Below, piece by piece: positions 3 through 3,880 of a DNA stretch of 64,000 nt (its first letter is position 1; each line of letters opens with the position of its first letter). The stretch comes from an uncultured Actinomycetes bacterium (GTDB taxonomy: Bacteria; Actinomycetota; Thermoleophilia; Gaiellales; JAICJC01). The DNA lies in assembly GCA_963703275.1 (NCBI GenBank), contig OY969804.1:3601259-3665258 (forward strand), read 5' to 3'. Below the pieces are notes generated by a model, which saw only the letters and a program-made list of their open reading frames with translations, was not told where the DNA came from and made no database searches. A program made the translations under genes and the position numbers.

Positions 3-1256
3 CTGCCCGGCACGGGCAAGACACTGCTCGCCCGGGCGGTGGCCGGAGAGGCGGGCGTGCCGTTCTTCTCGATCTCGGCGTCGGAGTTCATCGAGGCCAT
101 CGTCGGCGTCGGCGCAAGCCGCGTCCGCGACCTGTTCGTCCAGGCCAAGCTCGCCGCCCCCGCCATCGTCTTCATCGACGAGCTCGATGCGATCGGGCGC
201 GCCCGGGGCGGGTCCTCGACCATCGGCGGCCACGACGAGCGCGAGCAGACCCTGAACCAGATCCTGACCGAGATGGACGGCTTCTCGGGCACCGAGGGCG
301 TGATCGTGATCGCCTCGACCAACCGGCCCGAGGTGCTCGACTCGGCGCTGCTGCGCCCGGGCCGGTTCGATCGCCGCGTGACGGTCAACCCGCCCGACCA
401 GACCGGTCGCCGCCAGATCCTCGAGGTGCACACCCGGGGCATGCCGCTCGGCCCCGACGTCGACCTCGACTCGATCGCCTCGTCCACGCCCGGCATGGTC
501 GGAGCCGATCTGCGCAACCTCGTCAACGAGTCCGCCCTGACGGCCGCCCGCCGCAACCACGACCACGTGATGCTGGCCGATTTCACCGACTCGCTCGAGC
601 GGATCGTGCTCGGCGCCGAGCGCCGGATCATCCTGTCGGCCGAGGAGCGCGAGCGCACCGCCTACCACGAGTCCGGCCACGCCCTGCTCGGCATGCTGCG
701 ACCCGGCGCCGACCCCGTGCGCAAGATCTCGATCATCCCCCGCGGGATGGCGCTGGGCGTGACCTTCCAGAGCCCGGCGACGGATCGCTACGGCTACACG
801 GTCGACTACCTGCTCGGCCGGCTGGTCGGTGCGCTCGGGGGCCGCGCGGCCGAGCAGCTGATCTACGGCGAGATCACCACGGGAGCGGAGTCCGACCTCG
901 AGCAGGCGACCCGGATCGCCCGGCAGATGGCCGGGCGATGGGGGATGTCCGAGCGCATCGGCCCCGTGTCCGTGTTGCCCGGGCCGAACGATCAGCCCAC
1001 GCTCTTCCCGGGCGCCGGCGACGCCTCCGAGCGCACCCGCGAGATGGTGGACGAGGAGGTGCGGCGGATCCTCGAGGAGTGCGAGCGCACCGCGATGTCC
1101 GAGCTCGAGGCCCACCGCGAGCAGCTCGAGGCGCTGACCCGGGCCCTGCTCGAGCACGAGACGCTGGACGAGGCCGACGCCTACCGCATCGCGGGCATCG
1201 AGCGCGAGCCGGCGCCCGCGCCCAAGGTGGCCCGGACGCCGGCACCGGCCCGCTAA
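3..1256 (+). CDS. ftsH: ATP-dependent zinc metalloprotease FtsH (5' end outside window)
   Basis: Walker A (LPGTGKT at window start), Walker [30 protein letters not shown] (HESGH) M41 protease motif. Confidence 0.95.
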
Positions 1257-2383
1257 CCGGCTCGCGACGCCCACTGGTGGGCGCCGCCCTGGTGGACGGC
1301 GGCGTAGATCTCGTCCCGGACGTGGTTGGCCTCGGCCGCGGTCAGCGTCCGGGTCGGGTGACGGAGCACCAGGCGCACGAGGACGTTCTTCTGGCCCGGC
1401 CGCAGGCCGATGCGGGCGATCGCGGCCGCCGGCAGCGCGCTCGCGGGCGTCTCGCTGATCACGGTCACCTCCTCGACGGCGTCGATCGTCTCTGCGCCGA
1501 CGCCCACACGGACGCGGTCGCCCAGCTCCTCGGCGGTCATCCCGGCGGCGACGGCGATCGAGATGTCCCGGATCGCTGGTGGCATCGAGCTCACCTCGCG
1601 GTAGGCGTCGAGGCTGAGCATCTGTGCGGCCACGCGGGGATCGGCGGAGCGCAGGAGGCGAATGTCGGTGATGCCCTTCCGCAGCATCACCGCCCGGTCG
1701 AGGCCGATGCCGAGTGCCAGGCCCGACCAGCGCGCGGGGTCGAGCCCGGCGGCGCGAAGCACGTGCCCGCCGGCGAGACCGCACTCGAGCAGCTCGACCC
1801 AGGCTCCCTCGATCAGCACCTCCACCTCGCGCCCCTCGCGGGTGTACGGATGCGATGCCGCGAGCGCCCGGTACGTCGCATCCGGCAGCACGGCCGAGAC
1901 GACCAGATCGACCATCTCCTCGAGGTCGGCGGCCGTCAGGGGCGCGTCGCGCCGCACCCGCCACAGGTCGAGCTGGTGCGGCTCGCCGACGTGCAGGCGG
2001 TCGACCACGTCGCGCCGGTAGACGAGCCCGGGACAGGCGACGACGAGATCGAGGCCGGCGTCCGCGCCCGTGACGTGCCGGAGCGCCCGCGGGATCATCG
2101 CCGAGGTGTGCGTGCGCAGCAGCCGGCCGTCGTCGAGGTAGCGGGTGTACCGCGACTCGCGCGCCGGTGCGTCGGCCGGATAGCCGAGCAGCTCGTAGTT
2201 CTCCGCGAGCGTGACGATCGGGCTTGAGCGGCGGGTGTGGACGCGGCAGCGCCACGCCGCTTCCAGCGCGGCCGCGATGCCGTCGAGCACGAGTTGCATC
2301 GCGTGCGGGCCCGCGGCTGGGTCAGACAGATCGCGCAGCTGCAGTGCGCGGGTGAGTTGGTCATGGGTGATGGTCGACGGCAT
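1253..2383 (-). CDS. PheS-related class II aminoacyl-tRNA-synthetase-like ligase with C-terminal ferredoxin-fold anticodon-binding domain (monomeric, mitochondrial-PheRS-like architecture)
   Basis: LLRTHTSA, motif 2 VYRRD, motif 3 [11 protein letters not shown]-terminal RDIS...RTLT FDX-ACB-like region; ATG 2383 preceded by GGAGGA SD (2391-2396). Confidence 0.85.
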
Positions 2384-2466
2384 CGCTGATTCCTCCGAAC
2401 GGACGGGCGTGGGCATGGGCGGAGACGCCCCGGCCGTCGCACGGGCTGGAGGGAGAGGCGATGCCG
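2378..2466 (-). promoter_or_regulatory. SD/start-codon-sequestering hairpin (translational attenuator candidate)
   Basis: Perfect 9-bp inverted repeat 2378-2386/2458-2466 covering the ATG, CCTCC/GGAGG pairing at 2392-2396/2448-2452, inner stem 2405-2410/2425-2430. Confidence 0.6.
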
Positions 2467-2468
2467 AG

Positions 2469-2546
2469 CTACGCGAGCCGAGCGAACGCCATGACCCCAG
2501 CCTGCGGCCGGGGCGGGGTAAAGCGGATGGCGTGCGTGGTCATCAT
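2469..2546 (-). CDS. Putative leaderless leader peptide MMTTHAIRFTPPRPQAGVMAFARLA (25 aa)
   Basis: -10 TACGAT (2558-2553) lies 6 nt before ATG 2546; stop is immediately followed by a sequence complementary to the start codon/SD of the downstream gene. Confidence 0.6.
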   Translation of the reverse strand: MMTTHAIRFTPPRPQAGVMAFARLA

Positions 2547-2560
2547 GTCCCCATCGTAGA

Positions 2561-3880
2561 TCAGCCCGGCGCCTGGCGCCGGGAGTCGTATCGCCAGAAC
2601 GTCGGCAGCGCGATCGCCGCGACCACGACCCCCGCGACGCACAGGACGCCGCCCGAGATGATCGAGAACCGCACGCCGGTGAGCGACGCAACCCCGCCCG
2701 ACTCGACGTTGCCGAGCAGCGGCCCGGTCGAGTAGCTGATCTGCTCGATCCCGGCCAGCCGTCCGCGCAGATGGTCGGGGATCGTCTGGTTCCAGATCGT
2801 GCCGCGGAACATGCCCGACACCATGTCGGCCCCGCCCGCCACAACCAGCCCGAGCAGCGCCACGGCCAGGCCCTGCGCCACGCCGAAGCCAATGATGCCG
2901 ACGCCCCACACGGCCGCCGCCACGCACACCGCGGCGCCGTGGCGGTGGATGTGGGCCGCCCAGCCGCTGGTCAGCGTCGCAAGGAGCGAGCCGACGGCCG
3001 GGGCGGCGTACAGGAGGCCGAGCACGCCCGCACCGCCCAGGTGGGTCGCCGCGGCCGGGAAGAGCGCCATGGGCATGCCGAAGAACATGGCCACGATGTC
3101 GACGATGTAGGTGCCCATCAGCTCGGGCCGGGAGCGGGCGTAGCGCAACCCCTCCTTGATCCGCGCAATGCTCGGCGGCTCGGCCTCGGCCGGCGGGGGC
3201 ACGGCCCGCATCATCCGCAGGGCAACCAGCGAGACCGTGAAGGTGGCGGTGTCGACGGCGTAGGTGGCGGGCAGGCCGACCGTTGCCAGAAGGATGCCGC
3301 CGAGCGCCGGCCCGGCGATCATCCCGATCGTCACCCGAAACGACGCGAGCGCCCCCGCCGCCACGATCTCGTCCCGCTCGACGAGGCGCGGCGTGAGCGC
3401 ATCGAGTGACGGACGCTGGAGTCCGTCCAGCGTCGCCAGAAGCGCCGACATCACGAACAGCACCCACACCCTCGGGTGGGCCAGAAGCGCGTTGGCCACG
3501 AGCACCGTCGACGCGGCGGCGAACGAAAGCTCGGTGATCTGCATCATGCGGCGGCGGTCGACGGCGTCGGCCAGGGCGCCGCCGACGAATGCAGCGACCA
3601 GGAGCGGCGCCAGCTCCGCCAGCCCGAGCAGCCCCACCACCAGCGAGGAGCCGGTCAGCCGGTAGGCCTGAAAAGGGAGGGCGACATACGTGATCATCGA
3701 GCCGAAGAACGACACTCCCTGGCCGATCCAGAGCAGGCGGAAGTCCCGCCGCCGCCGCAGCGGGCCGATGTCGATCGTCGCCATGCGCAGCCGCCGCCGC
3801 ACCCCGCCCGGGGAGACCGGCGGCCCGGGTCCGAGGCGCTCGGCCTCGGCCTCGAGGCTGTCGCGGTCCGGCTCGGTCAT
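2561..3880 (-). CDS. MFS transporter (EntS/DHA3-like)
   Basis: ~12 hydrophobic segments; motif A GALADAVDRRR; IPDHLRGR C-terminal motif. Confidence 0.9.
   Translation of the reverse strand: MTEPDRDSLEAEAERLGPGPPVSPGGVRRRLRMATIDIGPLRRRRDFRLLWIGQGVSFFGSMITYVALPFQAYRLTGSSLVVGLLGLAELAPLLVAAFVGGALADAVDRRRMMQITELSFAAASTVLVANALLAHPRVWVLFVMSALLATLDGLQRPSLDALTPRLVERDEIVAAGALASFRVTIGMIAGPALGGILLATVGLPATYAVDTATFTVSLVALRMMRAVPPPAEAEPPSIARIKEGLRYARSRPELMGTYIVDIVAMFFGMPMALFPAAATHLGGAGVLGLLYAAPAVGSLLATLTSGWAAHIHRHGAAVCVAAAVWGVGIIGFGVAQGLAVALLGLVVAGGADMVSGMFRGTIWNQTIPDHLRGRLAGIEQISYSTGPLLGNVESGGVASLTGVRFSIISGGVLCVAGVVVAAIALPTFWRYDSRRQAPG

Follow-up and report, generated by a model that had tools for sequence, protein, structure and literature searches.

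Background

The phenylalanyl-tRNA synthetase (PheRS) genes pheST of E. coli are controlled by an attenuator with the leader peptide PheM, and in B. subtilis the second synthetase genes thrZ and tyrZ are switched on by uncharged tRNA through T-boxes. Among actinomycetes, a 2005 survey describes classical attenuators before trpS and leuS of Streptomyces and reports that the phenylalanine operons of Actinobacteria are preceded by no conserved RNA element (Seliverstov et al. 2005, PMC1262725). In mycobacteria, leaderless small open reading frames (sORFs) with polycysteine tracts have been described, in which stalled ribosomes block structures that sequester the ribosome-binding site (Canestrari et al., bioRxiv 10.1101/834739). 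Here we describe a leader in a stretch of 64,000 nt of DNA from an uncultured bacterium of the Gaiellales (GenBank assembly GCA_963703275.1, contig OY969804.1, positions 3,601,259 to 3,665,258; this whole stretch is called the window), where an sORF with one invariant Phe codon precedes srmL, the gene of a Phe-free, single-chain relative of PheRS. From the comparison of homologous loci we consider it rather probable that this leader is a ribosome-dependent leader-peptide attenuator of srmL that senses a shortage of Phe-tRNA.

Like the pheST, trpS and leuS attenuators, the srmL leader has a short ORF with cognate codons before a synthetase-type gene, and its mutually exclusive helices would likewise be read by the position of the leading ribosome. 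Unlike them, it has one invariant Phe codon instead of a run and a leaderless start, and its predicted output helix at this locus hides the Shine-Dalgarno sequence (SD) and the start codon with no termination of transcription; in contrast to pheST, srmL is an extra, Phe-free paralogue and not the housekeeping synthetase gene. With the mycobacterial polycysteine system the leader shares a leaderless sORF as first cistron. In place of a Cys tract, however, the leader peptide in the window has no Cys and would depend on a single Phe codon, Phe being the only invariant residue of the family. The mycobacterial mechanism was shown by mutation and proteomics, whereas that of the srmL leader is a prediction; moreover, the srmL leader family also occurs outside Actinomycetota, and some of its members carry terminators. 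As in the case of thrZ and tyrZ, a spare synthetase-type gene is proposed to be induced as tRNA charging falls, except that the proposed sensor is the ribosome translating a codon and not a T-box, for which the Rfam scan described below gave no match.

Results and Discussion

Organization of the srmL leader

Coordinates are positions in the window, and the leader and srmL both lie on the minus strand. The order on that strand is the end of an MFS_3 gene, TACGAT, the sORF, a 5' arm, CCTCC, GGAGG and the start of srmL. The features are as follows:

2553..2558, minus strand: -10-like hexamer TACGAT of a putative leaderless-type promoter, 6-nt spacer to the sORF start (from the sequence)
2469..2546, minus strand: leader sORF of 25 codons plus TAG, ATG at 2546 and TAG at 2471-2469, peptide MMTTHAIRFTPPRPQAGVMAFARLA (from homologous sORFs)
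2520..2522, minus strand: invariant Phe codon TTT (Phe9), the proposed sensor codon (from leader comparison and genome codon usage)
2505..2514, minus strand: region 1, GCCCCGGCCG, 5' arm of the hairpin just after the Phe codon (from the single-sequence fold, RNAalifold and the own-versus-cross arm test)
2495..2502, minus strand: region 2, GGCTGGGG, predicted partner of region 1 (local hairpin) or of region 3 (as anti-anti-SD) (from the fold and RNAalifold)
2458..2466, minus strand: 5' arm CGGCATCGC, predicted partner of the start-codon region, 2 nt after the sORF stop (from the fold and genus stems)
2444..2452, minus strand: anti-SD CCTCC (2452-2448), overlapping region 3, CTCCAGCC (2451-2444) (from the fold, RNAalifold and genus stems)
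2427..2436, minus strand: region 4', CGGCCGGGGC, perfect complement of region 1 (from the RNAalifold consensus and lineage-specific complementarity)
2392..2396, minus strand: Shine-Dalgarno sequence GGAGG of srmL (from the sequence; conserved SD)
2378..2386, minus strand: 3' arm GCGATGCCG, containing the srmL start codon (2383-2381) (from the fold and genus stems)
1253..2383, minus strand: srmL, 376 aa, PheS-like catalytic core and FDX-ACB-like C-terminal domain, no Phe residue

In RNA form the 5' arm, which starts 2 nt past the sORF TAG, reads CGGCAUCGC and is followed after 5 nt by CCUCC; GGAGG lies about 50 nt beyond CCUCC and is followed after another 5 nt by GCGAUGCCG, which holds GCG-AUG-CCG with the start codon. 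Exactly this two-part stem (anti-start plus anti-SD) is present in the minimum-free-energy (MFE) fold of 2546-2370, together with a hairpin inside the sORF. A first-pass annotation, made from the letters alone, had described the TACGAT hexamer with its 6-nt spacer, the 25-codon ORF, the pairing arms and the SD and start codon of the ligase, and all of these were found on the minus strand where it had placed them. It was also right in starting the ligase at 2383: the ORF lister begins at ATG 2416, 11 codons too early, while the conserved start is ATG 2383, because homologues are 371-378 aa long and the SD is conserved. The 11 extra codons of the mechanical call (2384-2416) fall within the leader stem-loop.

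In one sequence alone the stem is weak evidence and is not beyond chance in DNA of 71% G+C. The fold of 2546-2370 has a z-score of -1.75 (10 of 200 shuffles fold equally well), and the duplex of the SD/start region with the leader, at -27.2 kcal/mol, was matched in 106 of 2000 dinucleotide shuffles of the leader. It is conservation, not the single-sequence fold, that lifts the leader above chance. A scan of the locus for sigma-70 consensus promoters and terminators gave 0 promoters and 0 terminators, and no further copy of the leader core was found in the same genome with up to 6 substitutions allowed. The Rfam scan of 2200-2800 at E values up to 10 found no T-box and no Phe_leader, only three weak and unrelated matches.

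Conservation of the leader within the genus

When 24 other genomes of the same genus (G001-G024) were searched, srmL was found at E 1e-139 or better in 16, and G023 gave fragmentary matches only. Seventeen leaders were aligned, with L005 (genome G015) left out; G015 contributes to this genus count and to no other result. The genes upstream of the leader differ among these relatives (ABC permease, sensor kinase and others) while the leader is retained, and therefore leader and srmL seem to travel together as one unit. Gaps inside the sORF are all multiples of 3; downstream of it they measure 1, 2, 4 nt and other lengths.

Conservation of the upstream ORF and of the stem, together with covariation in the stem, had been proposed as a check of the first-pass annotation. 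The ORF, the -10 hexamer and the SD/start stem are all kept within the genus, and homologous ORFs were found in other phyla. Lack of conservation of the ORF and the stem, which the annotation had named as refuting it, was not what the comparison showed. A TANNNT hexamer stands at the TACGAT position in 16 of the 17 genus leaders, as judged by eye; the anti-SD plus anti-start stem is present in 17/17, at -18.5 to -31.5 kcal/mol, and its 5' arm starts 2-8 nt past the sORF stop in 16/17. As to covariation, the complementarity is lineage-specific and paired changes occur between subgroups of the genus, i.e., ...CGGCAU opposite AUGCCG in some and ...ACGCAU opposite AUGCGU in others, with the anti-SD and SD also changing together (GUUCCUCUC with GAGAGGAAC; GCUCCUC with GAGGAGC). 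In alignment A1, 74.9% of the cells of the start helix pair, compared with 25-44% when the partner is slid. The formal count did not bear out covariation in the start helix: two pairs (5 cells) were changed on both sides, not above shuffles.

The RNAalifold consensus of the 17 genus leaders is a long-range fold, in which region 1 pairs with region 4' and region 2 (GGCUGGGG) pairs with region 3 (CUCCAGCC). Most of these consensus pairs are invariant within the genus, and none showed compensatory (two-sided) changes.

Conservation beyond the genus and signs of translation

The distribution of srmL is patchy. It was found in actinomycetes, Acidimicrobiia, myxobacteria, Longimicrobiales, cyanobacteria and one metagenome-assembled genome labelled Melainabacteria, and the named hosts of homologues include Gaiellales, nine actinomycete groups, Acidimicrobiia, five myxobacterial groups and Longimicrobiales. 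An upstream sORF with an F-x-x-P core is present at 40 of 44 non-duplicate genome loci, the four without it being cyanobacterial. Among 80 metagenome loci, all 72 that have at least 150 nt upstream carry the sORF (64 found by rule, 7 in one TTC clade, and L133, which lacks the Pro). Start codons and main-gene starts were set by rule and then inspected by eye; the pooled set of 112 leaders includes close relatives, so that its members are not independent of each other.

Phe is kept in 112/112 leaders and is encoded by TTT in 105/112, a codon that makes up 7.4% of the Phe codons in this genome; it is the only Phe of the peptide in 83/112. The peptides are 14-34 aa long, with the stop 6-24 codons after the Phe, and Gly stands at +8 in 68/112. 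Three candidate stalling signals named in the first-pass annotation can be judged from this comparison. Shortage of Phe-tRNA at Phe9 is the one that the data favour, through the invariance of that residue and the prevalence of its TTT codon, and a Phe-poor enzyme fits it, whereas Phe21 is not conserved and is Leu or Arg in most relatives of the genus. The PPRP or polyproline motif also fails as a signal, as no run is conserved beyond the Pro at +3 (108/112); position +4 is Arg in 60 leaders and Pro in 30.

An in-frame start (ATG, GTG or TTG, with ATG the commonest) lies no more than 16 codons before the Phe codon in 111/112 leaders, the remaining one (L092) being cut by the contig end. Of 69 non-redundant leaders, 39 have TANNNT in a window of 5-8 nt ahead of an in-frame start codon (6-8 nt in the printed rows), compared with about 3% expected by chance. 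The leader thus contains what a leader-peptide attenuator has, a short ORF in the 5' leader whose translation is predicted. NCBIfam models gave 0 matches to 15 of the leader peptides.

Directly before the Phe codon, CGA is found in 66/112 leaders though it makes up 4.4% of the Arg codons in this genome, and outside the genus CGAUUU is nearly fixed at the nucleotide level; CGA-UUU could be a slow-decoding codon pair. One clade (L090, L100, L108, L110, L117, L120 and L138) has CGA-TTC instead of CGA-TTT, and therefore TTT is strongly preferred and not obligatory.

SrmL, a PheRS relative that avoids Phe

The srmL product matches Pfam PF01409 at 3.7e-33, and PF03147 at 28.2 bits, below the cut-off of 31.1. 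It belongs to NCBIfam NF051887, "PheS-related mystery ligase" SrmL (497.4 bits against a cut-off of 300, over model positions 1-349 of 349), and falls short of the canonical PheRS models TIGR00468 (102.5 vs 237 bits) and TIGR00469 (mitochondrial; 126.5 vs 258). Canonical pheS and pheT are present elsewhere in the same genome. The pocket of that PheS has FFPFTEPS and GFAFG; SrmL has HPYT for FPFT, GLALG for GFAFG and PHQ for FHQ/FTQ. The motifs HPYT and G(L)A(L)G are shared by the family, H, Y and T being the same in all 38 members compared, and these replacements could reflect avoidance of Phe rather than a change of substrate. A literature search, supplements not covered, found no report on SrmL or on this leader.

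SrmL of the window has no Phe in 376 residues, a result with a probability of about 1.6e-5 if Phe occurred at its proteome mean of 2.9%, and canonical PheS of the same genome has 15 in an open frame of 367 codons. Behind the leader, 111 SrmL proteins hold 26 Phe in 41,723 residues (0.06%) and 91 of them have none at all; 120 database homologues hold 11 in 45,103 residues. Homologues without the leader sORF carry more, although the numbers are small: 2-3 in the cyanobacterial proteins (L039, L046, L048 and L061), and 6 and 11 in those of two viral contigs (L150 and L151).

RNA architecture and output helices

In 111/112 leaders the distance from the first base of the Phe codon to the start of a local hairpin is 3-8 nt. 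RNAalifold gave no consensus for 66 Phe-anchored leaders, since their loops vary in length and their 3' arms do not line up; pairing was compared instead by duplex tests of own versus other lineages, each with 20000 permutations. In all three tests the own partner bound better, with 0/20000 permutations reaching the observed value. The hairpin arms gave -21.7 kcal/mol within and -16.9 across lineages. The 24 nt after Phe paired with their own downstream leader at -35.1 kcal/mol, compared with -27.4 for other lineages, the own partner being ranked first in 11 of 20 lineage representatives. The SD/start region paired with its own leader at -21.2 and with other leaders at -18.4 kcal/mol. Outside the genus the anti-SD lies at no fixed distance from the sORF stop.

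Two mutually exclusive sets of helices are thus predicted, pairing 1:4' with 2:3 in the RNAalifold consensus, and the local hairpin 1:2 with the sequestering stem in the single-sequence MFE fold. A crude scan flagged hairpin-plus-U-run terminators in 15/112 leaders, of which about 10 are convincing. In these roughly ten leaders (among them L036, L054, L064, L119, L127 and L133) the terminator arms repeat regions 1 and 2, and some relatives have a plain intrinsic terminator where the anti-SD stem would otherwise stand. Low-G+C L036 has all four regions of a clean attenuator, and its sORF stop follows region 2 immediately. As read from these sequences, this is one leader family with two outputs, putative terminators in some hosts and predicted SD/start sequestration in this genus.

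In the metagenome leaders L103 and L119, the G-run in the 3' arm of the terminator seems to double as SD, and the assigned GTG start stands 6 nt after the U-run; one hairpin could therefore both terminate transcription and hide the ribosome-binding site.

Proposed mechanism

We propose that, when Phe-tRNA(Phe) is plentiful, the leading ribosome would pass UUU and reach the sORF stop, whereupon the sequestering stem (or the terminator) would form and srmL would be off. With Phe-tRNA(Phe) scarce, the ribosome would wait at UUU, on the foot of hairpin 1:2, and region 2 would be free to pair with region 3 and occupy the anti-SD, leaving the SD and AUG open. SrmL could still be translated during the shortage, since srmL has no Phe codons, and it would then act on the shortage itself, the simplest role being that of an emergency PheRS. 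That the sORF is translated, that ribosomes stall at UUU, that region 2 captures region 3 and the anti-SD, and that SrmL acts on tRNA-Phe are all steps that we infer from comparative and computed evidence.

The invariant Phe codon, the choice of a rare codon for it and the nearly Phe-free enzyme would together tie the SrmL family to failed Phe decoding. A more specific proposal, which we advance tentatively and hold somewhat less probable than its opposite, is that SrmL is a starvation-proof emergency enzyme for tRNA-Phe, i.e., a single-chain PheRS rebuilt free of Phe down to its substrate pocket and made only upon a stall at one UUU. It would restore charging of tRNA-Phe at very low Phe, under inhibition of the housekeeping enzyme, or by means of a substitute amino acid, and leader and gene would move between phyla as a unit. 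SrmL is a widespread family that has a database name and no assigned function, and the leader offers a first testable role for it. The leader family itself, spread over at least three phyla with a single sensor codon, appears to rely on terminators in part of its hosts and, in others, on a leaderless start combined with SD sequestration, and may serve as a natural series for the rewiring of attenuators between transcriptional and translational output.

Direction of the switch

The expected, biologically sensible polarity is that a stall at UUU turns srmL on, because a strictly Phe-avoiding protein is expected when Phe codons cannot be read. The folding models gave mixed results on the direction. 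Scans in which a ribosome footprint was masked along the leader are equilibrium calculations that ignore the order of transcription. In about 4 of the 17 genus leaders (L006 and L008-L010) the SD/start becomes more accessible when the A site is at Phe or close to it. For leaders with terminators, the modelled terminator has a probability near 0 as long as the ribosome has not reached Phe, region 1 then being paired with region 4; the flip at Phe is sharp and shows that the Phe codon sits right at the base of the hairpin that switches.

Several results weigh against a Phe-sensing attenuator that is switched on by stalling. For the window the accessibility of the SD/start was 0.34 at every ribosome position, so that the SD stays closed in the model, and in the Archangium leaders it drops from 0.66 to about 0.19 with the ribosome at Phe+2. 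In 5-6 of 10 terminator leaders the predicted terminator is at about 1 with the ribosome from Phe to about +10, which at face value would mean that a stall turns the gene off. The long-range 1:4' fold, when enforced (11 of the 17 genus leaders were scored), has an energy 0-23 kcal/mol above that of the closed form, and the SD is not clearly opened by it. Known attenuators rely on runs of codons, next to which a single Phe codon makes a weak sensor, and the Pro at +3, kept even in low-G+C leaders, could be a peptide-level motif. Finally, HPY persists in the Phe-containing cyanobacterial homologues and in phage L150; the SrmL pocket differs from that of PheRS, and its substrate may not be Phe. 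With regard to the models, the trp leader would probably be misread likewise by a calculation of this kind, given its helix energies, as its antiterminator is a kinetic structure.

The same results lend some weight to the opposite polarity, which we regard as unlikely. Ribosomes that finish the sORF at UAG, 2 nt before the 5' arm, would unwind the sequestering stem and turn srmL on. The gene would be turned off by stalling at Phe, or by Rho working on the C-rich RNA left bare in the wake of the stalled ribosome. A ribosome terminating on the genus leaders would indeed cover part of the 5' arm, which begins so close to the stop, and both the drop in Archangium and the mask model (terminator with the ribosome on Phe to +10, antitermination through 1:4 pairing with region 1 free) point this way. 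These are equilibrium models, however, that disregard the order of transcription; the stop lies at a variable 6-24 codons from Phe, and outside the genus the position of the anti-SD relative to it is not fixed. A protein made only in the presence of ample Phe-tRNA would have no need to be poor in Phe, yet SrmL is 0.06% Phe.

Alternative readings of the leader sORF

An arrest peptide (R-R-F-x-x-P...) that stalls on a drug, a metabolite or lack of EF-P, instead of on the level of Phe-tRNA, is improbable to a similar degree. Conservation of both Phe at 0 and Pro at +3 is seen in the amino acids, also at loci of about 50% G+C (locus-wide), and there are preferences around them: Arg at -1 in 76/112 and at -2 in 65/112, and Thr, Ser or Ala at +1 in 70/112. 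Yet the residues before Phe are free within the genus (R, S, L or C at -1), which is unusual for peptides sensed in the tunnel, and consecutive Pro occur in at most 51/112 leaders, with Pro at +2 in 21 and at +4 in 30, so dependence on EF-P is not conserved. Pro and Gly fall where the hairpin arms are rich in C and in G, the selection for rare TTT and CGA points to decoding speed and not to peptide identity, and an arrest peptide would leave the Phe-free enzyme unexplained.

We give still less credence to a non-coding structured RNA, i.e., a riboswitch or a tRNA-binding leader with UUU as specifier, in which the ORF is incidental. UUU is complementary to the anticodon of tRNA-Phe, CGAUUU is conserved at the nucleotide level outside the genus, and the helices vary together by lineage, all of which such an RNA would share. 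It does not account for in-frame starts with a -10 at leaderless spacing far above chance, or for gaps confined to multiples of 3 with stops in frame; no Rfam family including T-box was matched at E up to 10, and besides UUU no conserved unpaired core was found in the leaders.

That the sORF peptide is a substrate or partner of the ligase, as in ribosomally synthesized and post-translationally modified peptide systems, and not a regulator, is the least likely reading of all: the sORF is the only element kept beside srmL across changing neighbourhoods and some synthetase paralogues do act on proteins (e.g., EpmA on EF-P), but the peptide has no NCBIfam family, only two conserved positions and a variable length and C-terminus, its overlap with terminators and SD-sequestering helices suits a regulator and not a precursor, and phage and cyanobacterial srmL genes lack it.

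Other observations

The weak Rfam matches at the locus (IRES_n-myc, F6 and CRISPR-DR20) were rejected as chance matches. The n-myc internal ribosome entry site match, at 2426-2474 on the plus strand, scored 15.4 bits (E 0.0063) against a gathering score of 40 and is taken as chance in G+C-rich sequence. In two RNA-labelled runs, X19 and X20, contig pieces fell only on coding parts, at less than 90-95% likeness, and 2376-2579 was uncovered, so they are neutral on expression.

No leader sORF was found at four viral loci with srmL homologues, nor a tRNA-Phe gene within 2.5 kb of them; one of the four has three tRNA-Leu genes. Upstream of the leader in the window, the MFS_3 transporter gene (2561-3880, minus strand) ends 3 nt before the TACGAT hexamer.

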